Positions 2,742 through 37,768 of a stretch of DNA of 44,552 nucleotides are shown piece after piece (positions within the stretch are counted from its first letter, which is position 1; each line of letters begins with the position of its first letter). The notes under the pieces were generated by a model. It was not told where the DNA came from and did no database searches. It worked only from the letters and a program-made list of their open reading frames with translations. Source of the DNA: Catajapyx aquilonaris (Eukaryota); NCBI GenBank assembly GCA_000934665.2, contig KZ538850.1, positions 1 to 44,552 of the forward strand, written 5' to 3'. Both the position numbers and the translations under genes were made by a program.

Positions 2742-3039
2742 ATGTGGGCGGCATGGTGGTCTACGGTTACCGGTACGCCGCTGACCAGCCAAGCGGGAGG
2801 CCAGGGTTCAAATCCCGTCCGTCCCCGTCACCTCTGCTTGGCCGGGTCTTTTTTTGCTTTTCTCCCGACATTCCGGAGCAGAATTGCACTCCCTTCTCTG
2901 CTCGGAGCCAGGAGAAAAGGCCTGGTGCTAAAGAATGTCAGAAATGGCTATCGCACGGCGCGGCGCCCTCCCTTGGGAACTTCCCCTTCCCCCCTAACAG
3001 GGCCACGAGCTCTATCACGGGGTTTTTTAAAAAAAACAA
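2742..3039 (+). mobile_element. Full-length tRNA-derived SINE
   Basis: Pol III A-box-like TGGTCTACGGT (2757-2767), B box GGTTCAAATCC (2805-2815) and an A-rich tail. 11-bp TSD CTCTGCATAAA at 2731-2741 and 3040-3050. Confidence 0.85.
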
Positions 3040-3979
3040 CTCTGCATAAATCCTATAAATCTGGTGTAGCCTACACAAAAATTGCAAATTGTAACCCCCT
3101 CGCGCAAATCTTATACTTTATGGCGGTCAACGGGTCAAGTCAGTTTTCTGATAGGGAACAATACACTGTTGCAGTCCAATATAGTATTAAAAAGTTATAA
3201 AAGATTGTATTTTATAAAGGATAATGCAATTCTCCAACCTAGAACTTTCATACGTAAGTTATTTCAAAAGCACTAGATTGTGACTCTGATAATAATCAAA
3301 ATCCATTGCTCCTTGGTGGACGAATCGTGATTTAATTATTTCCTAATCGACATACACAAACGTTAATCGACTTCAGTATTAGATTACCGAAATATGTAGC
3401 AGCGTGTAAAAATATGTGTGTTATTTGTTATCAATAAACCATTATGTCTGAACTATCACTTTTAACTGGGACCATAGCTTTATTAGCTTATCCTGGGTGT
3501 ATACATCAGGACAACTCGTATACAGAAAGCAAATGCATCACTGATACCAGGGGATTGAAATCTCAACAAATATGGCCTATTGCTGTTAGTGTACGGTAAT
3601 ATACTGTAGTTGATAAATTCTACAAGAAAGCCAAGTGGCACTGTACTTTGGTTATACAACTATATTATTATGACCACTGTAGTGATCCGCTTCTCCAACT
3701 TGTCATATGTATGTATATACCAGTAGCTCAAATAATGATATAACTGTTTCCAGTAATTTTTAATTTTTAACATCCTTCCTAATTTACATCCATACACGTG
3801 TGCCCAATGCTTGTGTTTTATAGGGCTCTTGATTTCATGAGAATCGACTGCAAATAATAGACCTATTAGCAAAACATGAAGCCGTCATCATTTGCAGAAC
3901 GATTCAAGCCACATTTTGATCAAGGCACTGCGTACAAAACGTATTCCAATTGAGGTGTCTGTCTTAGATATTTTTCCTC

Positions 3980-14412: not shown

Positions 14413-14533
14413 GAGTGTGTGTGTGTGTACATGTGTGAGTGTGTGGATGTGTTTCAAGGGGGGGGGGGGGGGNNNNNNNNNNNNNNNNNNNNNNNNNNNN
14501 NNNNNNNNNNNNGGGGGGGGAGAGAGAGAGAGA
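14413..14533 (+). repeat. (TG)n, poly-G with assembly gap (14473-14511) and (GA)n upstream of the promoter
   Basis: Simple repeats are directly visible. Confidence 0.9.
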
Positions 14534-14602
14534 AGTGGAGGTTAGTGCGAGGGCTCGGAAGCGGCAGCTTATTCGGTGCTTTTTGCCGCCCGGGCTTGAT
14601 AG

Positions 14603-14718
14603 CCAATCAGAGTAGAGCCATGACGTCGAGGAGAGCCAATAGGAAAGCTAGAAAGTGACATCAGGGAGTATTTTTAGCCGCGAATATAAGCGGGTGTGTG
14701 GCGCAGGATCTCAGCAGT
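14603..14718 (+). promoter_or_regulatory. Probable Pol II promoter of the ATF3-like gene
   Basis: CCAAT 14603-14607; CRE-like TGACGTCG 14621-14628; CCAAT 14636-14640; TGACATCA 14656-14663; MEF2-like GTATTTTTAG 14668-14677; TATAAG 14685-14690; Inr-like TCAGCAGT 14711-14718, about 30 nt after TATA. Confidence 0.75.
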
Positions 14719-14921
14719 GGGCGAGTGTGCCTGAGATGTGTGACGGGGAGCCAGTGCGAAACCAGCCGGAGTTGCTATTCACCATCCTGCCAATATATAC
14801 TGATATCTTGACCGATTTGCTATCCGACTACGAGCCGCTTCCGGACAGCGTATCGCGCGAGGTGTCGTACCAGAACCGATTTGGGGTGGTGTTTGGCACG
14901 TGGATTCGTTCCGACAGAAAG
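14716..14921 (+). other. ATF3: Putative exon 1 (5' leader) of the ATF3-like gene
   Basis: GC/CpG-rich segment after TATA/Inr, ending at donor AAG|GTAAAT (GT at 14922), with an abrupt switch to A/T and G runs. Linkage to exon 2 is inferred. Confidence 0.6.
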
Positions 14922-15136
14922 GTAAATAATTTGCAAAAAAAAAAAAAAATTAACAAAAAATTGGGGGGGGCTAATATTTTATTTGGGGGTGGCTATATTA
15001 ATTAAATTTGGGTGGAAAATTGTAAATTTGGGGTTTGAAATTGGCGGGAAATTGAGGCACGTGTTTGAGCACCGGTACGGGGATCGATTGAGAGCACGTG
15101 TAGTACGGTGTTTATTATCGGATACCGGATACAATA

Positions 15137-16384
15137 TGAGCTGAAGGATTTGGTCGTATAGGATTATGGGGCGAGTTGGGTTAGGTCAAGGCGTAATAGT
15201 ATTTATTGGCTAACCCTGTTTTGTATTCATGATATCCTTAGTGATTTAATTCGAGACGTACCGACCGGTCTAATTATACGGAAGGAATCGTTATCAGTCG
15301 GGCTGTCGTCTGAGCTACAAAAATGCGGCGCCTTTCTCCATCACATATGTATACAGGGCACACATGCATATTCGATTTTGCTCTTAGGAAAGCAAAACTT
15401 GAACCCAAACCTTGGAAGTTCAGTGCCTTCTAACAGGCCAACCTCAAAATAATAGAGGTGACATTTTCAAAATGAATATTATATGACGCAAACGTAGCTG
15501 TCGTCGTCGTCTTTGTTTATTTGTTGTTGTTATTATTAAATTATTTAAAGTTGTTGTGGTTGGATATTTAATTTTTATTGCATCCCTAACCAAAGGATTT
15601 TAATAGTGATTTTTCTTTTCAATAATAAATTATAACCATGTTCGTAAGTGTCGACAAAAAATGTAAGATAGCCTACCGAATGTGATGTCACTGTATAAAA
15701 CTCGTATGCTGTCGATAGATCCTGGTTCTTAACTATATCGTTTGTGTCATATAATAACCTCAACACTACACGCCACTGCTTTACTATTAAAATGTTTAAA
15801 ATGAAGCTACTTGGCATCGCATATTTTATTTAGTATAGACCTGTTAACAATCTAAAGTCTTTTTGATAGTTAAAAAATCGGATAGTATAGTCCTCTGAAT
15901 GTGTGTCTGCACAAGAACCGGAATACTCACAGAAAACCTCAAAAATATGCTCGAAATGTTTGCTGAATATGCTATTGCTCTATACGGTATACTGTATGCG
16001 ACATGCGGCGTAAAAATCCAGTGGTTTAAAAAAGGTCGTCGTATAAATGCTTCAATATCAACTCCAGGTAAGCTGCATCGTAAACTGCTTTATAACTTTT
16101 TTATTCGTCATTTATTGACAAAAAATCAGTATGTTCATCGGTCAAGTTTAGTCTATACTGAGGTAAGTTTATATACAGTATAGGTTACAATGGATGACAA
16201 TTTTGTAGCTCAGACGACAGCTCGACTGATAACGATTCCTTCCGTATAATTAGACTGGTCGGTGCGTCTCGAATTAAATCACTAAGGATATCATGAATAC
16301 AAAACAGGGTTAGCCAATAAATACTATTGAGCCTGACCTAACCCAACTCGCCCCTAATCGCATACGACCAAATCCTTCAGATCA
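15137..16384. repeat. Long inverted repeat (~185-bp arms 15137-15322 and 16201-16384), probably a foldback/long-TIR element
   Basis: TGAGCTGAAGGATTTGGTCGTAT...GTCGTCTGAGCTACAAAA is matched by TTTTGTAGCTCAGACGAC...ATACGACCAAATCCTTCAGATCA with scattered mismatches. The spacer is about 880 bp. Confidence 0.9.
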
Positions 16385-19300
16385 CACATACAATGAAATT
16401 ATTTCATAATTCACATAACAAGAAATTTAAAAATAACCTTATGGTCTACCTGTAAGGAAATAACATAATTTCTTCAAATTAATGCCAAAGTATACTGGTC
16501 GCCTGGCTCGAAATAATTACCTATCTTTAACGAACAAAGGACCACATTTTATAGGCTTAGGAAACCTTGAATTGCTTGTGAATCTTTAAGAGTGTCGAAG
16601 ATATAATAATATTCCATCCTATACTCTGAATTAAAACTTTTTGGACCAGTACTGCCGATTTTTATTAAAGTTATACGATAAATTCAGGCACAATCATTAA
16701 ACCAGATGACTCAATTCATAATTATTTCCGAGGCCTTCGTCCCTGTTTTAGCCTCTTGATCAGTGCATATTTTTCATAAATTGTGGACAGTCACGCATTA
16801 GTGTAATTTAGTTCAAAACTTGATGGTATGAATATGGTAATACTTGTTGCGCTGTTCCAAGAGGTCCTTGATAAACTCATTCGTTATATGAAACCTCCAG
16901 AAAGTCATTGGCATTAATTACTTCTGGTCATACGACACTCCTTGATCTTTATGAATTTTACATTCGATTGGATTTATCTAAATGCGATCAGTGGAAAGCT
17001 CAAGCAATAGGCCATTTGTATTTCACTAAGGATTTCGAATCAACCGTACATAACATGATGTGTGGAGGGTTTGCGTGGACTACAGCATGGAATAAGCTAA
17101 TAATACGGTGATATAATGATATCGTTTCATAATACTGTACTATTATAGTCTATAATTTAGGCGCCATCGTGACGCCCACATTATGGGAATATGTATCAGT
17201 TTTAGAGAACATAACAACTGAACTATTTTATTGACATTCAGCAGTTGGTCTTGATGTTTCTTTACCAGACATATGTACAGTAGTATGCAAAGAGCCTAAT
17301 TATTCATATAGAAATGCGGAGTCACGATTTATACCAGAACTTTTTCCCTCTCCCCACAGTGAATAAGCAGCAACAACCGAAAGTACCATTTAATTGATAA
17401 AATATTGTACGGTAATTACCTTTCAGCAAATAAAACGTGAAATTAAGGCGTTTTAAAATTAACTACAGTATATCTCTGCCTACTATAGTTAAGAAACTCA
17501 AAGAAATCCTGATACATGCGGACGTTGTGCCGTGTAATGCATTGCTCCTGCTCCAGCATTTGCTACCCAAGTCACAGGATCGCTTCCTGAATACAAAAAT
17601 ATGTAATATTTGTACCAAATCGGGGCGAAGGTCGCTCCTTATATAGCAGGTATTCGGTCGATGGAGACTATAGCACAGTTTCAGCCAATTGAAAATTCAG
17701 GGACGAATTTAATTGTGTAAAGTAAATCAAGCCCATTGCTGTCGTTTGCACGTGCCGCATTATTTTCGGCACCATTTGTTTACTTCCGCGGAAAATTCAA
17801 ATGATGTGATCTAATAGACCATGTCCACAAGATATTACCATCAGACTTAAGTGTGATAATAAATTCTCAATATTAGATGTCACTTATATTCTGCTTCGCT
17901 TTCTGAAAAAGTTACTAGACAAGGCTCGTTAACTGTCTATAATATTATTCACTATATAACGTGAATTTCATACTTCTTTTTCCAGTAATTAATCACCACT
18001 CCCGTATAATATGTGCCTTTTGTCTTTGATTATTTTTTTCTCACTACGATGACACAGAGACGTAAACCTACCGTACCGGTCCACCCCAGTTGTATAAGTA
18101 TACTCGTACAATATATAATGTGGACCGTCTACTCCAAGATTGCATAGAAGTTTGGGCATTAAGGTATCATGGGAACATAACCATTATAACCAATCATGAA
18201 GGAGATTCTAATAAACCATGATCACTTAATTCCAAACTTCCTCTGATAGATTTGATAGAGAGCCCTTAGTCATGCAGGTGTTCAACGATGGACGAAACTA
18301 TGCAGAGGCGTATTGCAATGTACTCGTAATTTTATCCCAACATTTTGTCTAAGGTCCGGTTGCGTGACGGATAGTAAATCCAGAACAAGTGATTAATCCT
18401 ATATGGATACTGGATTTAACATCGATTACTCAACTTGCCCTAAGTCTTGGTTGTATAATATTGTTTGGAGAACCAAATACATCCGCTCCACATATTTTTA
18501 TACTTCTCGACGGGAATTTTTGCCTACATCCGGATGCTCGGCAAGCTATAATTAAGCTACTATAACTGAGTCTGAGACAGCACATATTCAAAGGACCAGA
18601 CCTCTCCAAACCCCGCAGTTTATTTTTTCCACCAACAACTCATCTGGATCCCATACAAGAATAAAGTCAAGGTTTTAATGCCAATTCGCAAAAAATTAAT
18701 GTTCTATATAACCAGTCATTAATTGCGATAATTTCAGTGCGTTGTATTACAATTAATGCACGTTAATGCACTTTCAATAACCTGGCCTTATATGTTGAAT
18801 ACATCTGAATAAAGGGCAGTTCATGCAAATACAAAAATGAATTTTGAACGCAGCAAGAGTGTGGTGTAGTGCCGCGTTGCATGAATTAGTCGCGCTTGTG
18901 CTTGACGGCGGAGGTGTACCGGACAACGGGTGGATGTATTCATGTGTAGGCTCTACACGTACTAAAAACCCCACACGTGCATACGCGGAGGTGGTTGTGG
19001 TCCGCCTACCAAATTAGGTTTCCAACCCCCTAGACTCCCATATGTCTTCCTTAGGCCCACTCATTGTGTAACTTGGCCGACCAACATAGCTCAACACTTG
19101 GCGGAAAACTAGAGATAAGAGAAAAGGAATCGCCACAATAAAACTACCGCATTGCCTTGTTGGCGAAGCGCAATTGTCGATTCGAGCTCACAGTGTATTT
19201 ACCAAGTATTTACAAAACATTTTGACCGTATCCTTGCTGATGTAAGTCGGTTCTGTTTGGCAATTAAGCCCTTTCAAACAGAAGAATATATTAATCCGGC

Positions 19301-21445
19301 TGACCCTAGAAATCGTTAATAACTATTACAAAGGAGCTCATTGTGACGTGGCTTAATCTGAGCGAGAAGTATGCCTAATCCATCATTCACACGTGACATG
19401 AGGCGTACCGGGGGCTGGAAAAAGGAGACATAAATTCGCACCGCGGCACGCATAAATACTCCATTCCAAAGGGTTTCTCCTTGAGACTTGATATTATGGC
19501 CGCACCCTTCCCCCTTGCATATTACTGCTTCGTCAGGATTTTCCTCCTTATAAGATCAAATGTCACATTGCTTCGGGCTTTGTATGCCATATATTGCATA
19601 TAGGTCGGCTCAAGCTCTAAGGCAGTTTATCCATTGTTTATGCATACGGGAATGGAAAGTGTACAGATATTAAAACGTTTGTTGTTTTCAGTATTTATGA
19701 AGTTATTGTAAGGCATGTAATGCATATGGTGGAATATGACCACTGATGTACCTTCCATTTTCTGACCAACTGAGGTCCGGCTCCAGCGGTCCTATTCATA
19801 AGGCAAAGTACATAGGTTTCTAAAGAACACAGACAAAGCCGCCAACGTTATCGCCCCTGTCGGAGTACCTACTCTGAGATAAGTTCTAAACAGGATTAGC
19901 TATCATTTTATGTCTTATCTTTTCATTCATGTTACCTTATCAAGCCGTCATAAATATATGTGACAGCTGGAAAATGGAGCACTAGGTGAAAAAGAATCAT
20001 CCATAGAATATTCTGTTTTCGACGAGAAATCCTGTTTAGGTTACAGTAGCCGATGTGAGACTTTAATTTTTATTGTCAAAATATTGAGAGGGGTACCCGT
20101 CTTCAAGGCGATTGGGAATTTGCAGGGTCGTAACTGCCACTAACAGTCCTTTGAGATCTCAAGGAACTATAGTAGCATGAACCTGTTTAGGCTCCCAAAC
20201 TAGTGAGAGATGAATTGGACGTCGGTGGCGTTAAAGGATCCGCGTTTTATGACTTTTTCTTAGGACTAATCCTTGGCATTCCTGCCGGCAACCGTAACGG
20301 CCACTTTGGGCATTTTTGGCACATGCATCGTTACTGATGTTTGCTATGCTAGGCCTACATTAAACGCTGGTAATTAGGACCCCACAGCGAGATGTCCTCC
20401 CCACTTCTGCCCGAATTAAACTGGGGTAATATATAGGTGTCACGAGCAAGGAGAGCTTATAGTAGACAGAAAATCGACTCACGCAAACAATGTTGGTTTA
20501 CACTACAATATGCATATATGAGGAGGAAATAAACACCGTGTTGATATAGATTTTGCAATGTGAGCTTATAGTGTCAAATTCTCAATCACTGACACTATAA
20601 TTTATTAATTTATTATACTCTTGGGTACAAAATTAGAAAATGAAACAATATTACAATGCGCAATTTCCATTGTGAGTAATGAATGTTTATGGGAGGCAGA
20701 ATGGATTGCAGCTAGAGCCACAACTGGCAAGAGATATTCGAAGGATAATTTCAGCGACGTGGAACAAATGTCTGGATGATCCTGATTGAATGATCTGAAA
20801 TGAGTAAATAGGGAGGCTGGGTGCTGGAGCAGAATGTGCAGTGAAAAGGGAGACGGATGGTTAGGGCGGAGTAGCTGTGAATATTTTTAGTTCGCGAAAA
20901 GCGGAAGTGGAAATTCTCTAGGCCAATCGATTGGCGCCAGTAATACTCTGGGTGTCGCTGTACCCGTACGATTAATAAACGCATTACGAACATGCTCTGA
21001 TTGTCAGCATTCCCGAGTTTTATTTTTACACCGAGATGTGTGACATATACAGAGCACGACGTGTAGATTGCTCCACGTAATTGGCATTGTGATTTGCCTA
21101 TTAGCATAGTAATGCCCCGCTCGTTTGTTTTGACGTGGGCGGAAATGTGCAATGGAATCTGAAGTCGACGGGTACAGATGCTGCATGCTAATCGGGCCAA
21201 AACTATGTGTAATCTATGCATTATTCAGAAGTCTGGTCCAGTCCCTCAACTGCTTCTTCCTTCGTTCTAGTTCTCTTACATTTTGTACCTTGGCCTCTTT
21301 GCATACCTGCATTGCTCGATTCATAATCAAGTACGCCATTTGCATGAAGAAATTGCAAAGCCAGGCTGGCATCAAATTTCCTGTCCCTCCAAACTTGATT
21401 CTCCTTGTTTCCGTATATATACTGTATAGTCGAGGTCCTTCCTAA

Positions 21446-21720
21446 GTGCTAGTCCCTGCGTCGTCGCTTATTGTGTTGTCATGCGTACGGACCGAGAAAC
21501 TTCCCGCTGTGTTTTTCTATATTTGGTATAGCACCCCGAGGAAATATTACCATTGGAGGCATAAGGACACATCGCAACGTCCCTCACAAATTGAATGCAG
21601 TCACGCTGAAGAGTTTCCTCTCCTGCTGAATAACATGTTTGGTCAGGCCGCAAGTGAGAAAAGGATTAAATGTGGGGCCTATTGCAAACATGGACATCAG
21701 ACATGAACGAGACAGATTCA
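21446..21720 (+). pseudogene. Decayed non-LTR retrotransposon ORF1 (gag-like zinc knuckles) relic
   Basis: The translation SLIVLS..TEKLP..YSTPRKYYHWRHKDTSQRPSQIECSHAEE..IKCGAYCKHGHQT resembles an eroded triple CCHC pattern of I/Jockey-type ORF1. Confidence 0.4.
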
Positions 21721-24700
21721 TCTCTGAAAATTCCGCTTCCGGGTACGAAAAGGACCGCCAAACTGTTTTTACACCTCCAACTGGAGGAGCCAGGATGGTC
21801 CTCGGCAACATAAAGAGCGAAACTAATATACAGAAAAAAAATATCTAGAAAATCCTTGGCCTCCTTCCTGCGCAAGTTGTGGCTCACGAAAGTCTCCTTC
21901 TTCGTGAAAGGAGCATTTGTGCGCAGGGGAAAAGATGAGCAGGAACAAGTTGCTTGGATGTACCTCGGTCCTGCGACCAATAAGTGAGTTGTCACGATTC
22001 GTGAGACATTCCGCAAGGACGTACCTAAGGTCGCAACAATCACAACTGTTATGTCTGCGATATTTCATTTGACATCACACGTGATTGCCATCGTAGTTGA
22101 GTCCGGGAAAAATTAAGGCCGAACCACCATTAGGGGATTTGACCACCAAAAGGACGCTGGTTATAAATTGTGCTTTTGTCGATGACGGTGGTGGAGTTCC
22201 ACTCTTCCGGACATTTACAGTCGTGGCCTACAATGAATGCCGAGGGGAGGAGGCTTCCATCCATCAGTGATCATATGTTCAATTACTTTGTGATTTATCA
22301 GGGAGTAAAAATCATTAATTTATCCAAGAAAGCCAGCCTTGGGGCTGACGGTGGATGATGTAATTGTTGGCCCATAAATAAGCACGTATAATTTTTAATT
22401 CGTTAGTGTGATTTATTTCGTATTGAACTATCAGGCTACCAGACAAGCCCATCGAGTTCAATGTCTTCTGAGTTTATCGCGTCATAAATTCCATGGCGAA
22501 ATTTTTCCAAATGTACACTATTGTTAATGATCACGTTTAGTTTGACTTCAGTGTTTTACTGCCGATTGGTTTAGTGTAGTCTGATTACGTTCTATCTCAC
22601 GCTTCTTATAGTATGAGCTCTTGGCGTGTTTTTTTACGAGTGGACTTTGCCATTAGTTCTGTTTGAATGAAAGGTCAACCATCACTGCGTTCACGCCCAG
22701 ATTATAAATGCTAGTCTAAATATAGGCTTTCGTTCAGTTCTAGACTTCCGTGCCACCTGCCGATAGTACACTTTTATAGTCTTCTTTACCATGAAAACAA
22801 GACATCTAAACTTCCATGTCATATTTTAACTAGGCTAGGTAGGCTAATTACAGTACTGCCACATGTAATATTCGAATATGCCGAATGTTCTTGAGTGATA
22901 ACTATTACTTTGAAAGTGCAAAATATGTGCTACTACAGCATTGCAGTCGTGTTCTTGTGCTCCATTGTGAAGCTCTATATCTGCCCTCATTTGTATACCA
23001 GGAAAGAGGACAGTGCCGATTAGAGGCCGGACTGCACATAATCACTAGCCGGGGAAAATCCAAACCACCATTACTCGCTTTTCCGTCGAAAAGACCAATC
23101 AGCTGATTCACTCTCCAAATACCATCAGTCATTTGAATTTTTCCTTATTCCCATACCCCTGCCCACCCCCGCCATCCTTACAACCTTCTTCCTGTTTGAG
23201 AAAGGGCGGATAATTGAGAATAAATTGCATTACTTCTTCTGTAACAGATGTGGGGAATTAGTCTGGCACCGCTCCCTTCAAACCATCTGGAAGCAGACGC
23301 AAAAAAGGTAATGGAGATGGGCAATGGGAAGGATTCAAAAAAACATTCTAAAACAAACAAAGAAAAAAAACCCCTTCTGCCCCAGGAAAATTAGGGTGAG
23401 CTTGGCAAAGAAAGTCTGGTCCACTCCACTACCTTATGAATTATTACCCACTCGTATTTATTTTTCTGCTTCATGGAAGATGAATCTGCATCTAGAGACG
23501 TGGATTTTTTTAAAGAGATAAAAAAAAGAAGGCCTGGAGGCATTATTCTCTCATGCAATGTGGTCTGACAAGGTGTTTCATGTGGAAGTCGTCCAGAGTT
23601 CCAATCTGAAGTGACCATTTAGCCTGTCCCCGCGGTGATAGCTGCGGGGCAAATGTTACCACGATTTGTTTTCCTGCGAGTTCGGCAACCTTCCCGACTC
23701 CCTTGCAGTGTGGGTGGACCTACTTTTAGGCAGGGCTCACCATCCCATCCCATTCATCACAACGTTTTACGTCATGTAAAAAAAATCCATGTCATCAGCG
23801 ATACCCTGCTCTGTTTCGATATGATTCCAATTGTTGCCTACTGATATCCCATATTTTGTCGGCCTTGATGGAACATTAATATCCGATAGCTATTCTGGCA
23901 GAATTACAGAAACCATGGAGCTGCCGCAGTGAACAGGTCCGTATCTTTACACTTCATATATCTTTTCGCATATCCTCCTGGTGACACAGCCTTCGATGAT
24001 GCTGGGAAGTGAATAACAAGCAAGGGGGTACAGAAATAACAAGTAGGGCTGTGTGCGTGACATGCAGCTGTTGTCGCACCCGGAGAATCCTGTCAAAACT
24101 GTTAATGCCGCACCTGTTGCTAGCAGTTCCTTTGGACCTCCTAGCCGCTTTTTTTTTTAAAGAAGAAGAAAAAGAACGCGTAGGCAGGCCCAATTTTGAC
24201 CGATGCAAAAGTCCACCCCCATCAATGTTTATGGAACCTGGTTTCCTGTGCAAGTTGCCAACTCTTAGGGACAGCCATGTTTTCCTTTGGCTCCATCACG
24301 TGTGTTTTTGGTGGGGTTGTGCGAATTTGCAAGTGTCGTGGGGAGGACACGCGGCTTGTTCAAAAACCTCGAAGCTGTACTGTCTAATTGGCTCCCTCCG
24401 CAAATAGAGGCTGCAGCACGGGCTGCCAACCCAAATGGTTTGGCAACAAGAAAGAGGAGGAAAAGTGGAAGAATGCGGCCGGTACTTCCGCTCTGGCTAC
24501 AAGATTGATAATGACAGGTCTCTTCCGCTTTAATTAATTGGCGCTTTACACAAAAAATAGTGGTGGGGGAGGAGGCAAGGTGAAAGGAAAGGGCGTGTTC
24601 CTCTTCCCATACCGTGGTCCAGGCCACAACTTTCAAGGTGATACAGGCAGACCTTGCGGAGGTTCAAAATTCTGGTGGATTTGGGTCGTGTGATTAATTT

Positions 24701-25069
24701 GCGTATAGGGCATACATTCCTGTTGAATTATTTCGGAAGCGGTCACTTGCAGTGTGGTGCAGCATGACTCGTAATATGGGAGTGGACTCCCTGCTTTTAC
24801 ACAATGGAATGTAAAACGCAAGCTGTGTGTGGCATAAAGTTTGCTTTAGGGCATGAAACTCGAAGCCGTAGCCTGAACTTCATTCTCCTGTACGAAGCAG
24901 TACCCCGAAGTTTACGAAAGCTGGCGACAGTTTGGGTTTCTGGTTAATTACTTGAGTGGGAGGTACAAGTTTTCGCGATATACGTTCAGTGCCATTGTTC
25001 TTGTCCAAGGGTATGGGGCTGAACAAGTTGGTGGAAGAAAAGGGTATTACCATGTACGACCCGTGGGCC

Positions 25070-25175
25070 AGATATCCCAAACCTGTCAGATGTGATCGGT
25101 GTCAATCAAAATATACGATGTTACAAGCAACAGTCGGAGAAATGCACGTTCAAACCTATATGCCAGAGTATAGCA
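25070..25175 (+). pseudogene. Second decayed LINE ORF1 zinc-knuckle relic
   Basis: YPKPVRCDRCQ followed, after a frameshift, by YDVTSNSRRNARSNLYA. This resembles Y-x-P-x-P-x-R-C-x2-C-Q-x-Y-G-H-x4-C-x4-R-C-x2-C. Confidence 0.5.
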
Positions 25176-28100
25176 TTTGTAAATCGAGCTGGACCGGTAG
25201 AGTAAGTTAGTGTATATTATAGTTCTATCGTGACCTTCAGTTACGTAACTACACTCCCTATATAGTTAGATGCTAAGACTGTGATATATTACCGGCATTG
25301 CATTGTATGATCTCTATCACAACCTGTAGCTTTCGGGAAGCGAGTGTATAAGCTAAGTTATAGACCTAATTCGGTTACTCATTATTTGAATAAGAGCCTC
25401 ATATAAATCAGTTACGCCAAATTAGCTACGTGCTTTTAGTAGTGGAATTACCATGTCAGGAATTTTTAATCACTCTTTTTAAACCCACACCCTGCAAACA
25501 ACCTGGTGGCCAACCCGAATTAAAATGCAATTTCACGTTTGAGAAAGCTGCACACGAAATTTCGTGGCTTTAATACTGGTCATAATTGCAGTACTAGTAT
25601 CAGCATCAGCTACATTATATAGTGGCATTTTGATAAACAAGAAAGTAAATATGTGTAAAGCACGTGGTAATTTAGGCCAATTATTTGGCATCACTGGGAA
25701 GATATCGCATTCGCTATTAATACGTCCCTCATCATCAGTGGCTCGTCACGGCCTGTACTTTTCATAGGTTGTGTTTCACCCACTATCTCATTACCATTAC
25801 TGGAAATGCAGCATACGCTAGAACTCAACACAGAACGTGGCCATCACATCAGATATTATCGACTAATAACATTCCAGTCAAGCCAAAGTACGTGGAGAAA
25901 TCGACACATTCAACAATTTATTCTTCTAGGAAGTATTTCCACACTCGATCCTACACAATGATCAGGCCCAATCATTGTCTCATATACTCACACGTCTTAG
26001 TAAAAAAAAAAAGGCCAGGTTGTTAGGAGCATCCCTAAGGTCAAAGGTATGCATGTTTCAACCGACCCAAACTCCCCTCTCACCGCTTCCGGTTGTAATT
26101 TTGCTGAATTATTATGTCCCATATTTTCTCCTGGCACAGGCTGAGAAAAAGACAGCGGGGTGTCCTGCCATTATTCCATCGTGAAGCATGTCCAGCCGAG
26201 AACAGGTTATGTGCGTGCATGAATCGCTCAACATCACGAGTTCTCCCCTATGGCCATAGTTACGTGAGCATCGGAAAAGAATGACAAGATTCATTCTCCC
26301 GCCCCCGCACATTTCCGATAGAATCTCCCGAGACATATTCTTCAAGAGAAACTCGAAAGGGCAAAGGGGTATTTCATTTGGAATCAACTCACGTCCAAAA
26401 GCGCGCGCATTCACTCACGATGCGTGCAAAAAATTTAAGTACAAAAAAAATATTGAGGAGAAAAAAAAGTAGTGTGAAGTAATCGTAAGGTTTGATGTAG
26501 GTGTTAGTGTGGGTGGCCCCCTGAAGCAAAATCCGGCTGGACTTCCGCTTTACATCCTTCCACCACAAGTATATGATTCAGCCCAACGACGGGCTTCTTT
26601 TGTGACCTCGCTAAATTAATTGTTTAGTGGGAGGCGTTGACAGTATATGCACCTACCTTTTTTCCTTCACCTCTCATTAAGTCATTAGATGGTTCAGGTA
26701 CACTTTGGGGCAAAAGTAAGTTGAATTTTTGTGGAAAGTTGAGATTTTACATTGTTATATGTATTGTGGGGGGGTGTTCACATATGGGTTGAGGATAGCA
26801 CGTATTGTATAGGAATGAATGAAACGCTTGAATGAGCCTTTGAAGGAGTGGACACGCAATCCTAAGGCAGGGTAGTGTACTGTATAGTACCACTCGACCT
26901 ATGCCAACATGAACCAATCATCCCGCGATAAGAGCCACACCTAATCATTAGCATTGCCGATTATGTCAGCGTGAGCAGGAAAGTTCCGAGCCTTTCAATC
27001 AAGGAGGCCGCCCAAGAGATGATCACCTGTTGCTTTGTCAACACTACATGCAGGGCTCTGGCAAAGAAAAGGCCCATCCTCGCGGAGATTACGTTTACAT
27101 TTCCCATATACAAATTGCATAGGAAAATCGGACGTGTGCTGTTGCACAACAGCAATTTATGTCATGGCTGTATTTATGTTCTTGCTCCTGATTCCATCGG
27201 TAAGGTGTGAAACGCACCGTCACGTAATTGGGGAAGGTAATTGGAAGCTTGCTTGTAGTGCGACGTGGCCATAATAATAAACTCCGGTTTATATTTTAAT
27301 AAGCGGTAGAAAAGGGCTTTGTGCAAGTTATTTCCGTGTGGTTGTTGCTGTACAAAGTCATAACAATATGTGGGATTTTCATGCTATCGAGCTGTACAGG
27401 AACATAATGCACAGGTATCTATTTTCTATAAGGGGTCATGAGGCAATATAATCATATTGAATAACTTGAGGGGCGTACCACTTGTTACACAGTCTCCGCG
27501 GTGATGTCTGGCACACGCCCATCATTTACTGTCCAATATAGATTCTAATAGTAAATCAATTCGCTAATCAAAGAAGCTGCGTCGAGAGCAATCAACCAAT
27601 GATATAAATGAATCATGCTATCGAAGATTATGGACGGATAATAAAAACAGGTTCTGTATTATATGGCCCTGTTCGTCCTTCCCCAGCGTATATCACGGAA
27701 TGAGATTGCAGCTACGATTCGTTAAGAAAGTGTATTTCATTTGCCTCCGACAAAGTCACACTTCAAAACTGTGTATACACATGCTTGACTTATGGTTTAT
27801 CATTATGCGGAGATATAGTCTACACCTTCACAGGGGTGCTTGTTCGGTGCTATCCGTGGGTGTGGTTGTATCTTTTAACCCGGTGTTTTGATAAGGGCGA
27901 TTACATGACATGGTGTTTAATTTTGGTCAGCTTTGTTTACAATCCATGGCAAACCCTGAAATTGAATTTTGTAAACTTCTTGCCCAAACACCGGGGAGGC
28001 CGTTATCTTCAGCACGTATCTTCATAAACAGACAGCAAACACGGCTTGTTTTTCCTGTCCTCACTTATTACCACAAGTTGATATGACTTTTCTTTCATTT

Positions 28101-30768
28101 CTAAGAAGCCGCATATCTGTCTCCGGTACTATCTAATGCTTCTTAGCGAGGCTACCACAACTCGGAGGTTACTGCAGAATAACCACATCCACCGACACGC
28201 ACTCATTCGTTACATATGCTGTGACGTTTGTGCTCTTTTCACGCGGGGGTGTTATTTTCGAGCTTTCCAAGTATGGAATGAAGTTGATAAGCTCAATAGT
28301 AGCCGCTATCTATTGATAAAGGCTATTCAAAACTGTTGCGAGGCATGACGCTGATGAATATAGAAGCTGCCATCCAATTAAAAATAATTATTGTGAAGGA
28401 TGGGAAATTGTTGGGGAAAAGGTACACCATGCTGCATATACTGTACAGTTATTGAGGCATGTTAGCGTCGCGTCCGTAATAGCGTGAAATAATTATGTCG
28501 AATAAAGTGATCTCAAGGGCTTCATGGCGACTGGTGAGCGTATTAATTACAAGAAAATCATCATGCAGTGTGTATCGTACTTATTACGTAAGAATGACTA
28601 TGGGTCTACATGTCACGTGCAATTGGGACCATTACTGATTTATAATTTTTCTCTCTCCTTGTTTTGAAATGACCATTGTGGAGGAGGCACACACGACAAG
28701 CGCAAGTGGGTCATACATTTGTCGTGCCATGAATTTATGATCTCTTGTACTTTGATGGGAACCACTTCTGAAGGATAGTTGTTAATGATGGATGGCTAAA
28801 ATGTGACATTTGACCATCACATCCATGGAAATTCCGATCATCTGATAGGCTACTCACAGCACAAAAGTGTACAGTATTTTCAAGTTTATGCCCCATCAAG
28901 TTTTGCAAATGCGTACACAGCGAAAAGTGCATCCTGCAGCCATGTATAACTTAATATGTACCAGGGGCAACCAGGAGCTTAAGTAGTGTGTCAATGAGAG
29001 TACAAATATAGGCGTAAGCCAAGTGCAGTTGTCTTACCGATGCGCCTAATGTATGCTAAGTAATGGATCATTAAAACAATGTACGGCCTACATATGGGGA
29101 AAGCAAGGTCTGCTGTAATGCCATTGTACTCGTCTCTGCATCTGAACAGAAAATTTGCCAAGAGCCAAAAATGGTCAACTCAAAATTTGGGACGCCAAAA
29201 AAAAGTGCATCGGATCTCTCTCACCCCATGAAAAATGAATGAAAAAAAGGGGGCACTTTGCCCACATACGAATACATGCATACATGTGCATGCATGGTGG
29301 TCGCCCACGCGTACCACTTATTGCCTTATTGAGGCTAATGGTTTCCAAGTGCAGTCCAAACGCCCTGATGGTCTGAATGGGCTCCGGCGCCCGATTTCCT
29401 TTCTCTGGGACTGCGACTGCCATGTGTGCACTGCGAATTTGGTCTGATCATATCTTCTACGTATTATGCAAATGGAGGGACTAATGAAGGGGAAGTTTTT
29501 AGAGGTCTTGTGTTTTTTTTATGCTTGGGTGACTCTTGTTATCTCTTAACACGATCGAAGTCTTCGTGCAAGATGGCATAAATGACGGGTGCTGGTATAT
29601 TGTAATTTAGGGCTCGTCTGACATATTACACTAGAGCACGACATGGCATTCACAGTCTTCCTGCTCGCTTATTATTCACAGCTTCGTGACCCAAGGGCTG
29701 TTGGGTTACCGGACCGCGAGACAAACTTGCCTTTGGTCGCTCAATTATCTTAATCTTCATTTCCATCTATGCACCTGTTCTCTAAATTATATGTTGCATG
29801 GGTCGTTTGATTCAATATTTTGGTGTGTGGTACGGCACATTATGGATAATTTCTAGGCTGGAAGGAAGCAAAGAAATTGATGGCAAAATCCATCCGAACA
29901 TATTAAACGGAGACATTATTACTGCTTATAAGCAAGTTATAAGTAATAAATTATTAAGCATAAGCCTGTTTTTACTCAAGGTTTCCTCACGATTTAATAA
30001 ATTCAATTGCAGGCTTACTTATGCGAGTGCTAACTCGGTTCTTCTTAATTATAGACATCTGCTTGACTGAGAATTACAGTGAGTGGATGCTACGGCAGAT
30101 TTATTACCTAGAAATTGAAGGCATGTGACAAAGGTTAAATGCTGCTTGTGACCTTGTTTGGCTGCGACGAGCACTGGTGTTCAGCGACAATAAGAGTCTA
30201 TTCACGGAACCATTATGTATCACGATAATCTGCTTCCTTCCTTGGGGAATACGCGTTGACGAACCACCGGAAGGCCTGGAAAGATCAGAGGTGGACACCT
30301 ACTAGACGTTTAGGATTCTGGGAACGTCTCGGAAGTATTTTGAGGTCACCACCGGTGATGACATAACCATTAATCACAGTGTGTGTGTGTTCTTTCTACG
30401 TTATTTAACCAATCCGGTGCAGTTGTGGTTGTGCCTGTGACCCAATCGTGTAGGAAATCCTGAGGCCTGTCGGCTATGGACCAAGGTTCTGAAGTCAGTC
30501 TAGGAAAAATTGCCGTGAGCTACGCTGCAGGATTATTCCAGGGGTTCGGAACAGCTAGAGGTGAGATTTTGCTGTGTCGAAGAAGCACGATCTTGACGTC
30601 CGCTTTGGAATATTTTGGCGGTTGTTTGTCAGCCATAAAATGATGTTGAAGTTGGCACAGGGGTTTACTCCGGAAACAATGAAACACAAGCTGACTGGTT
30701 TCTTGCATCCGTTAGGACTAACCATGGTCAACAGAAACTGACTAAGCCTTTTCTTTTGGTCCTTTCAG

Positions 30769-30924
30769 AACGAGAGAGACCCCAATCGGCGACAAGCTGG
30801 ACGATTCGCTGCATCACCTAGACAGAGGATAGTGATACCGACACCACTTGTCTCGAGCGATTTTGGAACAGTAGCTTCCTGAGGAAGCCGAGTTCATCGA
30901 GCTAGAAGGATCAAGTCAGTGTCT
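30769..30924 (+). other. ATF3: 5' leader part of exon 2
   Basis: Branch-like ACTAAG, polypyrimidine tract and acceptor CCTTTCAG| ending at 30768. No ATG before 30925. Confidence 0.7.
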
Positions 30925-31407
30925 ATGATGTACCTCAACGTGAACATGAACCCAGGCTCCTGCCTGCAGGACAGCGCCTGTACCACACCCAGGACACCCG
31001 AGATCCTGAACTCTCTAATGGCGCTAAGCAATCCCTTCGACACCTATCCGGCTGGCGAGCTAGTGGGGGGTTCTGGTGGGCCGCCCCTGGGTCTGGGCAG
31101 TCCGCCCTTGGCCACATCTCCATCTGATGCTGGCCATGCATCCTACCCTTCCCCGCCTTCCTCGGCGTCCTCCGCATCCTCGACGGCCTCGTCGCCATGC
31201 TCGTCTTCAGGTTCTTCCCCTGCACCTCAGGGGCGGCCCTCTAATCGCCCTCACTGCCGCATCCCCGTCCGCACTCGGGCGCACAGCATCCAGCATACGC
31301 GCTCACAGCTCATCAAGGAAGGACTCAAGCTAACCATTCAGACCAAGCGAATGGCCACAGGCCAGGAGCAAGTCTGCATTGAGCCCAAAATACCAAAGAG
31401 GGAAGAG
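30925..31407 (+). CDS. ATF3: ATF3-like bZIP transcription factor, first coding exon (161 codons)
   Basis: MMYLNVN..CTTPRTPEILNSLMALSNPF..Ser/Pro-rich..QHTRSQLIKEGLKLTIQTKR; I recognise these motifs from protostome ATF3. Donor GAG|GTATGT, phase 0. Confidence 0.9.
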
Positions 31408-34234
31408 GTATGTGATGTAAGTTATCCAACGACAGTTAGGTTCAGGTACCGGTAACCTTGTATCCTCAATAACCAAAAGTTCCTCGAGTCCATCCATTTC
31501 CCAATTATCTCGTGTCATATGGACTACACATCATAACCTAATTTATTGTTGGGCCTTTTTCACCTCATTGCACCTGGTATCCCTCACCTGAGATTAGCGG
31601 TATCAATTCATTTTTGTATCTGATTGTTCAAAATGAGGTTGGGAAAGGTTAGGGAGGTTGAGATAAGGTGGTATTGGAAAAAGCGTATTAAAAGGGTGCC
31701 GTGTGTCTCAGTCGAGATAAATGGATACAGGGTGATAGGGCGTGACACTTTGCAGTTCTGATATTCAAATGGCCATGGAGATTTGGGGTTGGCATGTAAG
31801 TGTCAATGCCGATAGTTATTTACTTGCTTGTCATTCAGTGAAAGTAAAATAGCGGGGACTCGCGACTTTAGCCTAACATTAGCCACAATACCAATGGCAT
31901 TGAGCGAAATGCGCGAAAAATGTCTACCAGGTTTTCTATAGTTGTTCTTATGCATTTGCAGTTCCGGATATACGACGATGGGGAGACGAGTCCGCCCGCG
32001 AGTCCATATGAGGAGGTTGTATAAATTATGTTACTTATTAGTTTTACTCTTTAAAATATTTTGGAAGGTCGTGCTACTATTAAATTTCGTGCAAATAATG
32101 CAGTTACACAATCGCTGTTGGCGTTTTTGCGGTGAATGTGTAGTCGGAAGGAAACCGCAGGCAGAAAGTTCTGGACCATCAAGCTCACAAAGGTACACAA
32201 ATAAAGATGTTATGAAAGACAATGGAATTCGTGACACCGTTTGTTATTGACAATGAAGCGACAGTGAAGCATTAGTTTTGTGGGGAGGGAAACGGGTTAA
32301 GCTAAGCGTGGAAGAGGTTTTATGCATACTATGTCGAGGACACGCAAGCACACTGTTTATAAGAGGAGACTATAGGAACTCGAAAAAAAGACACTTTCCA
32401 AGGCCTTTTGGCTTGCAGTGAAATCGTGCGAATGTACAGAATAGTTGCACACTTTTGAAAAAAGAAATCATCGTTGCACACAAATCCACTCATTCAGGGT
32501 AATTTCGCAGTCAATGGCAGAAACGTGCTTGAGTAGGGGAAAACAAAAGGATCAAAATTATGGAGTCGCTCGATACAGTTGCAAGATCAATAGCCCATTA
32601 TATGTGCAGCTCTTATTTAGGCTGGCTTTCTTTTCCCCCTTGTCTATGATAGTAGATCTCATACTTATGGCATACTATTTATGAAGAAGGAAGAAAAAAA
32701 CGCGTCCCTTTCTAGATGTAAATTGGCCCTTTTGCGTCTCGACCGCGTCTTGACTGTGTCTCCTTTCATCATGCAATCGCACTTATTGGGTGTAATAGAA
32801 TTCAGAATTATATTTTTCAGTACTCTCCTATACTTCGGCTTTTGTTAAAAGACAGATCACACCCACTGTCTTATCTGAATGCCACCCACTGTGAACAACA
32901 CAACGCAATAACTCAGAAGCTCTGCAAGACACGAAGTTGTCGTGCCTTGCGTATGATCATTTCCGAGTTATCTTATATCAAATGCACATAGCATATGACA
33001 ACTCCTGGCATTGCCGAGCTTCATATTGCTCACAGTCTGTGGGCCGTGGTTCAAAATGACTGAAAACCATTTCCATACATGCAGTTCATCGTGGTTGTCA
33101 ACGATCTGCGATTGTGGACACGACCTTGCTACGAGCATTGTCATTCACTTACATATCAAAGTGTGCCGTCATTCACGCCATATTCCACAATTCGTCACTA
33201 GCAAAGTGATATACTGTACCGAATGAGCACTGTATTATAATGCCTCTGCTCCATATACATCGTATGATACAAACACTGACAGCCTTGAGCCTCATACTGT
33301 AGTGTATACTATGAATTGATGTAATGGCCTAGAGAAACTATATCTGAAATTGTTATGCACCCTTGAAGAGACCAGAATATATGTCTGTTTTAAGCCAGCA
33401 AAACTGGGCGTCCGTTAAATAGTGCCCATGGTTCCCTTCTGTAATTAGGATATAACTTATATGCAATAGGGTAGTTACGATGATCGAGTCTCATATTTTG
33501 GTCATGTTCAGTAGCTCAATTTTGCTAACCTGCTGCCCACGACCTACGTCAAAAAGTACAAAAAATTTAAAATCAGTTTTTTTTGTCGTATGTACTTGAT
33601 ACTTGATACTTGGTACTAGTACAGTAGTACAGGCCTATTTGATAATAATCCGCGCTTGACATGCGTGCTTATCTAGTGACCTCGTATTGAGGAAGTTATC
33701 AAATGGCTTATTTGTTATGGGTTACGAAAAAGTTAAGCCCACAAGAGTAGGCAGCCTGCACTACACCGATATTTAATTAACAGCAGATATAGAAAATAAT
33801 ATTATTGTTTACTACAGTAAGCATTCGTTATTCATGGGCGCTCAAGAGAAACAAAGAACTTACGCTTTCACTAGAAATTTTTTGAAAATGCCGTCCCAGA
33901 TATTTACGCGTTCTTCACCACCAACTGCTGTCAGCTTTGTCAATCCTATTTTTGGCGAAGACTCATCGTGATAACGGTTTAAATCAGCATGTAAACGGAC
34001 TCCTTCATTACGTTTCATGCCCGGAAGAGTTTGCTAATATCATCGCGTCCAGAAAAGGTCGCAAAAATGATCACAGAACCCCCCGCCCCCCCACTCCCCC
34101 GAAACTACGACTTAGAGCATGATTGCAGAAATATGTCATATCTTGCTACTGCTGCACACAAAGAGCTGTATGAAGGATGATCAAAGACGCACTCACTTGA
34201 ACTGCTCGAGACTTTGAGTAATGTCCGTTGTAAG

Positions 34235-34470
34235 GACTGTCATGTGGAATCAGGAATTGTCGTGCGCTCTTTTTGCAAAACTCAAGGGGACATCTTGGAG
34301 TATCCTCCACACATTGTCCAGACCGAGTGATCTTTAACATGTTTCGTCACCTTATGAATATTTTCGGAAGATGACACCCTACAGACCTAGAGAGTGACCA
34401 CGAGACGAAGAAGTAGGCTTGGCGGCGAGAGTGCTGGACAAATAGCCTTACAAAATACGGTGCCATCTAC
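34235..34470 (+). pseudogene. Heavily decayed mariner transposase fragment
   Basis: Across frameshifts it reads LFAKLKGDILEYPPH..PD..FNMFRHLMN..W..LTKYG, resembling the mariner WEVLxHPPYSPDLAPSDFHLF and RWxKCxxxxGDY motifs. Confidence 0.5.
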
Positions 34471-37062: not shown

Positions 37063-37170
37063 CTGACCCAAGAAGACGAGGAGCGACGAAGACGACGACG
37101 CGAACGAAACAAAATTGCAGCAACGAAATGCCGAAATAAAAAGAAGGAAAAGACAATTATCCTCGTTCAG
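37063..37170 (+). CDS. ATF3: ATF3-like bZIP, basic-region exon (36 codons)
   Basis: LTQEDEERRRRRRERNKIAATKCRNKKKEKTIILVQ. Acceptor TTCCCTTTACAG|, donor CAG|GTGAGA. A 108-nt phase 0-0 exon, as in Fos/ATF3-family genes. Confidence 0.96.
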
Positions 37171-37348
37171 GTGAGAGGACGGGTGTCAAACGGGTTTTTG
37201 CAGTGAAATATGTGTAATAATTTCATTATTCAGTGTCGCTTTCTTTACTGCACATTTTGTGCCACATAAATTCCTAATTTTGCTAGATTATTACTGATTA
37301 TTATTATGTGTCGGGCGGTAACGAGCTGCTTGTTTCTTTTCTAATAAG

Positions 37349-37768
37349 GAATCGGAATGCCTGGAGGGTCAAAACGTGTCCCTAAAGACAGAGATCCAGA
37401 AGCTGGAAGCAGAGAAGCAGCGGTTAATGGATATTTTGTCCATGCACGCACCAGCCTGTGCGAAAAACACTACCCCAACCAGTGACAACAATAGCAGCAG
37501 CAGCAGTAGCGGTAGCAGCAGCAACACCGCCGCAACCACCCCCACATCTCACAATGGAGACAACAGCAGTTATGCCCACCCTAGCAGCTGCAGTTACCCT
37601 AATGAAGCAGTGAACGGCTACTGCACCACCCACATCTCCTCCACCTCATCCTCCACTTCTTGTGTCAATTCGTACCAGTACAGCTCCTGCAGCTTTGACC
37701 AAGGCAGTGGCAACACTAACCCTTTCTTGGGTTACAATGGACTTGAGAGCGGTTGTGTGGCCCTGTAG
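37349..37768 (+). CDS. ATF3: ATF3-like bZIP, leucine zipper and C-terminal exon (139 aa + stop)
   Basis: ESECLEGQNVSLKTEIQKLEAEKQRLMDILSMHAPAC completes five Leu heptads plus the HxxxC motif of the Fos/ATF3 family. Acceptor TTTTCTAATAAG|; AGC-repeat poly-Ser; ends SGCVAL*. Confidence 0.95.
   Translation, partial: ESECLEGQNVSLKTEIQKLEAEKQRLMDILSMHAPACAKNTTPTSDNNSSSSSSGSSSNTAATTPTSHNGDNSSYAHPSSCSYPNEAVNGYCTTHISSTSSSTSCVNSYQYSSCSFDQGSGNTNPFLGYNGLESGCVAL

Follow-up and report, generated by a model that had tools for sequence, protein, structure and literature searches.

A rigidly spaced CCAAT, bZIP and A/T-rich module in the proximal promoter of an ATF3-like gene

The 44,552-base stretch of DNA analyzed here is referred to as the window, and all coordinates are positions in it on the + strand. 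The evidence supports reading positions 14603-14690, from an arthropod-like genome, as the proximal promoter that serves an ATF3-like bZIP gene. The full order of its parts is CCAAT, 13 nucleotides (nt), a site resembling a cyclic AMP response element (CRE), 7 nt, CCAAT, 15 nt, TGACATCA, 4 nt, an A/T-rich 10-mer, 7 nt, TATA. The best explanation of the findings as a whole, to which we assign a probability of about 0.75, is that this ATF3-like promoter carries a fixed-distance platform for NF-Y, bZIP and MEF2 factors, part of a promoter grammar shared by stress and immediate-early genes. We take the likeness to the mammalian JUN promoter as probably reflecting such a shared grammar, not one private to AP-1 genes. 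The same spacing in other animals suggests an old or strongly constrained promoter design.

Layout of the promoter module

The string of motifs that the initial annotation of this DNA had reported is present in the window letter for letter at the place it gave, and 14634, where it began the module, is the A preceding GCCAAT. It had also placed a second CCAAT-13-bZIP pair just upstream, which is there (CCAAT at 14603-14607, 13 nt, TGACGTCG at 14621-14628), and had cautioned correctly that the MEF2-like site begins with G, one mismatch to YTAWWWWTAR. The parts are listed below; group A is a set of related metagenome sequences described in a later section.

14603..14607, +, distal CCAAT box in AGCCAATCAG context; read from the sequence and aligned with a CCAAT in 4 of the 4 group A sequences used
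14621..14628, +, CRE-like 8-mer TGACGTCG, 13 nt past the distal CCAAT and 7 nt ahead of the proximal CCAAT
14636..14640, +, proximal CCAAT box (GCCAAT 14635-14640), 15 nt ahead of the TPA response element (TRE)
14641-14655, +, 15-nt spacer AGGAAAGCTAGAAAG between GCCAAT and TGACATCA
14656..14663, +, TGACATCA, a TRE/ATF-type bZIP site, the same 8-mer as in printed Jun primers
14664-14667, +, 4-nt spacer GGGA between TGACATCA and the 10-mer
14668..14677, +, A/T-rich MEF2-like 10-mer GTATTTTTAG, 4 nt past the TRE; position 1 is G, not C or T
14685..14690, +, TATA box TATAAG, 7 nt past the 10-mer and 56 nt upstream of the 5' end of the transcript contig
14711..14718, +, initiator-like TCAGCAGT, read from the sequence, 28-31 nt past the first T of the TATA box

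Both CCAAT boxes stand in an AGCCAAT context, and the start of the CCAAT and the start of the bZIP site are 20 base pairs (bp) apart. About 120 nt upstream of the promoter, at 14473-14512, is an assembly gap (N) bordered by (GA)n, (GT)n and a run of G, and because of this gap the promoter is unreadable further upstream. The window has a second assembly gap, a run of N at 773-824.

The module lies just upstream of a spliced transcript

A public sequencing run, X1, of a kind not recorded, contained 0.25 of the words of 30880-39000, a region for which no RNA run was listed, and was mapped onto 14513-34512. Its contig record 1 (1488 nt, depth 18.2) matches the window with 0 differences in three pieces, with contig letters 1-174 on 14746-14919, 175-824 on 30767-31416 and 825-878 on 31962-32015. 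Past 32015 the contig has a loose end formed by the first letters of the bZIP exon at 37063, and from its length it would finish near 37850. The 5' end of record 1, at 14746, is 56 nt past TATAAG, which places the module just upstream of the transcript. The resulting gene model is as follows, with an upstream open reading frame (uORF) given last.

14746..14921, +, exon 1 (5' leader) as covered by the contig with 0 differences; true 5' end at or upstream of 14746
14922..30768, +, intron 1, 15,847 nt, GT..AG, from contiguous pieces of record 1
30769..31416, +, exon 2, with the main ATG at 30925; from the contig and the spliced open reading frame (ORF)
31962..32015, +, exon 3, 54 nt, coding; joint 31416->31962 is GT..AG, and the exon matches the orthologue P0001
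37063..37170, +, exon 4, bZIP basic region; from the loose end of the contig and Pfam bZIP_2
37349..37768, +, exon 5, leucine zipper and C-terminus, stop at 37766-37768; the exon 4/5 join agrees with P0001
14736..14921, +, exon-1 part of a predicted 99-codon uORF that continues past the splice in exon 2 and terminates at about 30880

All four introns are GT..AG, and since four such introns have been removed from it, the contig is RNA-derived. The splice ends read AG/GTAAAT at 14921/14922, CAG at 30768, GTAAGT at 31417, CAG at 31961, GTTGTA at 32016 and CAG at 37062. The cut was placed at AG/GTAAAT because the AG at 14920-14921 equals the AG at 30767-30768. Based on the initiator-like TCAGCAGT, the start site is predicted at about 14713-14716, close to the 14716 of the initial annotation. 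A promoter directly upstream of exon 2 as the sole promoter of the gene was rejected, as the contig carries exon 1. There may be an additional internal promoter besides 14603-14690.

The 99-codon uORF stops 43 nt ahead of the main ATG at 30925 and begins with the sole upstream ATG in the leader modelled from 14716. Its predicted ATG, at 14736, is 10 nt upstream of the first base of the contig, 14746. A Pfam search with the uORF returned no match.

Within intron 1, another X1 contig of 259 nt (depth 3.8) matches 26074-26331 with no differences and may represent unspliced RNA, a repeat or a transcript from within the intron. The same intron has an inverted repeat, 15189-15325 / 16198-16334, with arms of 137 nt that are 96% complementary and 872 nt apart; the arms resemble the two termini of a small mobile element. 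Nested inverted repeats are also found 2.2 kilobases (kb) past the stop, at 40003-41183, where arms of 45 to 168 nt that are 84-97% complementary make about 1.2 kb nearly palindromic.

The downstream gene encodes an ATF3-like bZIP protein

Joined by their coordinates, the exons form one ORF from the ATG at 30925 to the stop at 37766-37768, coding for 357 amino acids (aa). The protein has a bZIP basic region, encoded at 37063-37170 and thus 22 kb downstream of the module, followed by a leucine zipper. Pfam recognized bZIP_2 in exon 4 with an expectation value (E) of 1.1e-5 (25.8 bits against a cut-off of 22.3) and bZIP_1 with E=1.3e-5, just under its cut-off. P0001, a 348-aa protein obtained independently from a different assembly, is 83.8% identical along its full length, and all three of the exon joins checked against it match. 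The match spans the 54-nt exon 3, which had not been predicted beforehand.

Among proteins of solved structure, the best relatives are FosB and c-Fos (E=1.3e-5). Many of the 120 matches listed for P0001, from insects, are named 'activating transcription factor 3', and a minority are named c-Fos, fosB or kayak, all of these being automatic names. Among the matches listed, the first named homologues of P0001 come from stick insects and cockroaches and are 40-48% identical over about 72%; the arthropod-like window genome is near none of the named species listed. The closest Atlas cluster is 'activating transcription factor 3-like' with a score of 0.96. By these source names the closest named relatives are ATF3 rather than Fos or Jun, and 'invertebrate ATF3' would be a fair name for the gene, one based on source names and not on a tree. 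The module had been annotated as lying upstream of an invertebrate ATF3, and this is borne out by the spliced contig, which joins exon 1 to the bZIP exons, and by the homologues named ATF3.

The promoter aligns with metagenome sequences of group A

Group A consists of 10 loci with 5 distinct sequences, and its core is 15 nt, TGACATCA and, after 4 nt, a perfect CTATTTTTAG. An alignment of the window with four of these five sequences spans 128 nt and has 65 invariant columns and three gaps of 1 nt. It brings the two CCAAT boxes, the two bZIP sites, the 10-mer and the TATA box into register, and TGACATCA is identical in the window and the aligned sequences. The two layouts compare as follows.

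Distal CCAAT to first bZIP site: window 13 nt, group A 12 nt
First bZIP 8-mer: window TGACGTCG, group A TTACGTAA
First bZIP site to proximal CCAAT: window 7 nt, group A 7 nt
Proximal CCAAT to TGACATCA: window 15 nt, group A 15 nt
TGACATCA to 10-mer: window 4 nt, group A 4 nt
10-mer to TATA box: window 7 nt (TATAAG), group A 4 nt (TATATAAG)

About 140 nt further on, group A has a GT donor. The contigs of the group are conserved over about 600 nt; tblastn and Pfam found no coding exon on these short contigs. Group A looks like the orthologous promoter in another animal lineage.

Upstream of the module, about 200 nt (about -250 to -40; for example 1690-1900 of locus L036) are nearly invariant in the five group A sequences, exceeding the conservation of the downstream exon. 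This stretch suggests further conserved regulatory sites.

The fixed spacing recurs in metagenome contigs

We scanned a collection of metagenome contigs for CCAAT, 12-18 nt, TGAC[A/G]TCA, 4-6 nt and TATTTTTAG. About 3 chance matches were expected, by our own letter-counting arithmetic made without a known collection size. The scan returned 46 loci, and in 36 of them the first spacer is exactly 15 nt.

First spacer 15, gap to the 10-mer 4: 20 loci
First spacer 15, gap to the 10-mer 5: 14 loci
First spacer 15, gap to the 10-mer 3: 2 loci
First spacer other than 15, any gap: 10 loci

The same pattern gave 5 matches in a prokaryote control of 596 gigabases (Gb), with first spacers of 17, 12, 18, 12 and 18 nt, and 0 matches in viral contigs. 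The geometry proposed in the initial annotation therefore recurs, with a 15-nt spacer in 36/46 loci versus 0/5 in the prokaryote control. A TATA-like box is found 4-17 nt past the 10-mer in 25 of the 46 loci, and 24 of these 25 have the 15-nt spacer. The base ahead of TATTTTTAG is C in 34 loci, T in 7, G in 4 and A in 1. A perfect CTATTTTTAG is present in 34/46 loci, including all 10 of group A.

Searches of the 46 loci with tblastn, using the window protein and P0001, found nothing. Neither a bZIP signature in any frame nor an ATF3-type N-terminal motif was detected in them. We scanned 138 of the 153 downstream ORFs (at least 60 aa) with Pfam; of the 15 left out, most were second ORFs, belonging to L027 or to the near-identical loci L012, L025 and L032. 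Beyond matches at chance level, this yielded only a TAZ zinc finger in L025, a truncated reverse transcriptase in L015 and, in L039, a weak PP1c-binding match. The three longest unexplained downstream ORFs look non-coding or low-complexity.

Half of the 46 loci make up what we call family B: 23 loci, from groups B, C and D plus L008/L018, L007, L009 and L039, in each of which the first spacer is 15 nt. Their 8-mer is TGACGTCA, except for TGACATCA in two loci, and the 10-mer follows after 4 nt in 10 loci and after 5 nt in 13. The family has 11 distinct 15-nt spacers with a median of 4/15 identical positions, about as in random sequence, and likeness between its groups is limited to about 60-85 nt round the module. 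Length is kept and sequence is not, which fits the prediction of a distance constraint and not that of recent copying. Fixed NF-Y/bZIP spacing, in which the spacer length is kept while its sequence varies, is thus seen both in the 36/46 loci and within family B.

Most family B loci also have a conserved TTATTTC-AAAT-TGAAAC element 25-30 nt upstream of the CCAAT (for example L037, L009, L039 and L015).

In L039, the module is about 200 nt ahead of a small gene whose final ORF has at its end a PP1-binding region like that of PPP1R15/GADD34. The match of this ORF to Pfam PF10488 has E=7e-4, below the curated cut-off, and the motif was also recognized by eye; an Atlas search with the ORF gave no usable match. 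If the gene is PPP1R15-like, AP-1 family genes may not be the only ones with the cassette. GADD34 also belongs to the stress genes. The initial annotation had the module shared by AP-1 family immediate-early genes, which is not supported as worded, the sole recognizable downstream gene elsewhere being this PPP1R15/GADD34-like one, a weak match.

The L039 region 2483-3410 has tandem modules, with a full copy at 2483-2525 followed by a second TGACGTCA that has CTATTTTTAG 12 nt later and no CCAAT. The L039 gene has a coiled-coil-like ORF of about 100 codons, then the ORF with the PPP1R15/GADD34-type motif, then AATAAA signals.

In L015, at 1514-1789, and also in L016 and L023, a 5'-truncated reverse-transcriptase ORF (Pfam RVT_1, E=8e-6) is found about 35 nt past the module. 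To judge from the related L045, in which a TATA box is seen, this piece is an insertion into the promoter that replaced the TATA box.

L011 has CCAAT, 15 nt, TGACATCA, 3 nt and CTATTTTTAG, with ATAAGG 17 nt on and a GT donor about 200 nt past the module. Compared with five printed Jun primers, L011 shares only 11- and 10-letter words, no better than other loci. We count it only as one more apparently promoter-like case of the 15-nt spacer, in which the second gap can be 3.

A pre-assembled NF-Y/bZIP/MEF2 platform as the proposed mechanism

In the mechanism that we propose, NF-Y would bind both CCAAT boxes, and a Jun/ATF-type bZIP dimer, possibly including ATF3 itself, would bind TGACATCA. The upstream 8-mer TGACGTCG would be a site for a CREB/ATF or PAR/C-EBP-type dimer, and the A/T-rich site for a MEF2-type MADS factor. 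As 20 bp is about two helical turns, NF-Y and the bZIP dimer would share one face of the DNA. The fixed distances would let NF-Y, bZIP and MEF2 sit together as a pre-assembled complex. By analogy with JUN, the platform would be occupied before the stimulus, and phosphorylation of the bound factors by JNK, p38 or ERK5 would quickly switch the gene on. ATF3 could also feed back on its own promoter.

Several points weigh against this reading. For the transcript, the joint table of the mapping tool lists only the 31416->31962 joint, and the join of exon 1 to exon 2 was taken from the contiguous contig pieces and not from that table. One joint row, next to a masked A-rich repeat at 14924-14970, was dropped by the tool, whose warning is that rows of this kind are mostly false. 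X1 is not recorded as an RNA run, and because contigs do not show true ends, the transcription start is only bounded, at or before 14746. For the 10-mer, the window copy does not fit the MEF2 consensus CTAWWWWTAG / YTAWWWWTAR, its position 1 being G, and with just 7 nt between its end and the TATA box it may instead be a core promoter element. For the metagenome loci, 21 of the 46 have no separate TATA-like box within 35 nt, and tblastn, bZIP-signature and Pfam searches of the contigs found no coding gene downstream in group A, L011 or most of family B. The scan matches inform on spacing and not on conservation of letters, as the pattern fixed the CCAAT, the 8-mer and TATTTTTAG. The 46 loci form 18 sequence groups, over which the binomial p is 6e-6, a value that is too optimistic because the loci are not independent and probably come from three to five lineages. 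At about 4/11 independent units with 15 nt, the spacing statistic alone would be only suggestive; the group A alignment and the family B spacers are stronger arguments. Finally, the CCAAT-TRE spacer of human JUN is only presumed, here as in the initial annotation, to be 15 nt.

Alternative explanations

That common motifs merely came to lie side by side, with no function as a unit, is very improbable. The CCAAT (63 copies) and relaxed A/T-rich 10-mers of the form NTAWWWWTAR (22) are frequent in the window, which also has 4 copies of the 8-mer TGACATCA counting both orientations, and JUN was chosen for comparison after the sequence had been seen. These motifs are nevertheless juxtaposed only once: CCAAT-N15-TGACATCA-N5-TATTTTTAG matches the window at a single place, also when up to 3 mismatches are permitted. 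At the same tolerance, 100 dinucleotide-preserving shuffles gave 0 composite matches, and about 2e-8 exact matches are expected from the base frequencies of the window on both strands. Given these results, the same layout retained in group A and the prokaryote control without a 15-nt peak, we rejected chance as the explanation. Also unlikely, though less so, is that a repeat or mobile element carries the module, its copies then reflecting copying and not selection on geometry. Such an origin would be in line with the short reach of family B likeness (about 60-85 nt), other repeats shared nearby, the partial tandem copies of L039, the truncated reverse-transcriptase ORF right after the module in L015 and the CCAAT/AP-1 pairs of precise spacing reported in human long terminal repeat (LTR) elements (PMC4889920). 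It fits poorly with a window that has one copy, which starts a spliced cellular mRNA, and with group A, whose conservation over about 600 nt is that of an orthologous single-copy locus. In addition, family B spacers differ like random sequence, unlike recent copies, and the L015 piece reads as an insertion replacing the TATA box of its relative L045.

The MEF2 assignment is the weakest link of the proposed platform, given the G at position 1, the 7 nt to the TATA box and the 21/46 loci with no separate TATA-like box. It is possible, if not the reading that we favor, that the 10-mer is not a MEF2 site but part of the core promoter, as a second, upstream TATA-like site for TATA-binding protein (TBP), or a site for another A/T-binding factor. 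The conserved unit would then be CCAAT, 15 nt, a bZIP site and an A/T-rich core element. The variable base ahead of TATTTTTAG (C 34, T 7, G 4, A 1) is consistent with this, and a distance from 10-mer to TATA box of 7 nt in the window and 4 nt in group A is tight for two DNA-bending proteins. On the other hand, the CTATTTTTAG carried by 34/46 loci, among them the 10 of group A, is a sequence bound by Drosophila Mef2 (PMC3250504), and 25/46 loci have a separate downstream TATA-like box. A stronger contender, at somewhat below even odds, is convergence, with NF-Y, bZIP and MADS factors fitting together only at these distances and no common ancestral promoter. The spacers are fixed in length and unrelated in sequence (median 4/15 identical positions among 11), and the module stands ahead of two or more kinds of gene: here an ATF3-like one and, by a weak match, a PPP1R15-like one in L039. 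The distance from the 10-mer to the TATA box varies from 4-7 nt in the window and group A to 10-12 nt in family B and 17 nt in L011, and precisely spaced NF-Y/partner sites are a known theme (PMC4889920). Nothing was found against convergence; what the window's alignment with group A demonstrates is descent inside that one lineage.

With the fixed-distance NF-Y/bZIP/MEF2 platform as the preferred explanation, a far older origin can be entertained only tentatively. The cassette (CCAAT, 15, TGAC[A/G]TCA, 4-5, CTATTTTTAG, TATA) might be an old bilaterian grammar of stress and immediate-early genes that predates the protostome/deuterostome split. It would then have been kept in arthropod ATF3, vertebrate JUN and other stress genes (PPP1R15/GADD34-like) of a third lineage, with its spacers perhaps frozen by one pre-assembled, kinase-triggered complex of NF-Y, a Jun/ATF dimer and MEF2. 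We regard this reading as less likely than not.

Significance

Promoter sequence is rarely alignable beyond close species, and we know of few fixed-distance cis-regulatory grammars across phyla. Here, a composite known from one mammalian gene, JUN, recurs, its distances seemingly unchanged, before a different stress-induced bZIP gene of an arthropod-like animal and in many promoter-like loci of at least two other animals. If the factor assignments hold, they would give a simple, testable model in which stress kinases act on immediate-early genes via a pre-built NF-Y/bZIP/MEF2 platform, and a sequence signature with which to find such genes in unannotated invertebrate genomes.

Comparison with known systems

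The window shares with the mammalian JUN promoter the identical 8-mer TGACATCA, the 4-nt gap from the TRE to the A/T-rich element (the window 10-mer ends in TATTTTTAG) and the order CCAAT, TRE, A/T-rich site, start site. Each gene encodes a stress-induced bZIP factor. Unlike JUN, the window has a canonical TATAAG just 7 nt past the 10-mer and a second upstream site, TGACGTCG, beside another CCAAT, and the first letter of its 10-mer is G where the printed Jun primers have C. The JUN module presumably lies about 14 nt further from the start site than the module here. JUN is not known to have an intron, whereas this gene has a 15.8-kb first intron. The A/T-rich site of JUN has reportedly been shown to be a MEF2 site. 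The sequence TGACATCA, TGGG, CTATTTT is printed in the available parts of three sources, as a Jun-TRE gel-shift probe (PMC2441799), a mouse Jun chromatin immunoprecipitation primer (PMC3392945) and a human JUN primer (PMC5706420). The JUN 8-mer and the 4-nt gap to the A/T-rich element, which the initial annotation had given, are confirmed by this probe and these primers. Our literature search, with most subscription journals beyond its reach, found no printed stretch of human JUN with the CCAAT-to-TRE spacer, and PMC11508107, PMC6505634, PMC13182534 and PMC3260295 yielded no site-level information.

The mammalian ATF3 promoter is similar in belonging to the same gene family and in having a non-coding first exon and a long first intron. 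Human ATF3 is described as having a TATA box in its promoter, with an ATF/CRE site at roughly -92 to -85, a position that would match TGACGTCG if the start here is 14713. No site-level text on the mammalian ATF3 promoter was found in the literature search.

The S-X-Y module in class II genes of the major histocompatibility complex is likewise comparable as a stereo-positioned NF-Y system. NF-Y is reported to contact ATF3, c-Jun and ATF2/6 directly and to lie at precise distances from some partners, in the available text of PMC4889920. PMC3730095, PMC4982600 and PMC7144946, where available, likewise point to a CCAAT with a partner site at a fixed distance. Such pairs include NF-Y/USF and NF-Y/FOS in human LTR repeats and the fungal CCAAT-binding complex with HapX, which resemble the window in combining a CCAAT with a second site at a fixed distance. 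In contrast to these two-part modules with other distances, the window has three parts and a TATA box, a 15-nt gap and an invertebrate setting.

CTATTTTTAG, the 10-mer seen in group A and at most other loci, has been tested as the Mef2 site of Drosophila Actin57B, for which the consensus is CTAWWWWTAG (PMC3250504), and the core of a MEF2 gel-shift probe is GGGCTATTTTTAGGG (PMC4339472). Actin57B differs in being a muscle structural gene, and the accessible part of PMC3250504 reports no bZIP site or CCAAT adjacent to its 10-mer; the window copy differs from that 10-mer in its G.

Our literature search found no description of this geometry across phyla, a weak negative given that most subscription journals lay outside it. 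Already known are the JUN module and the stereo-positioning of NF-Y with its partners. What is new is that an ATF3-like promoter of an invertebrate has this rigid layout, that it aligns with a promoter of another lineage and that the layout recurs, its spacer length frozen, at many loci.

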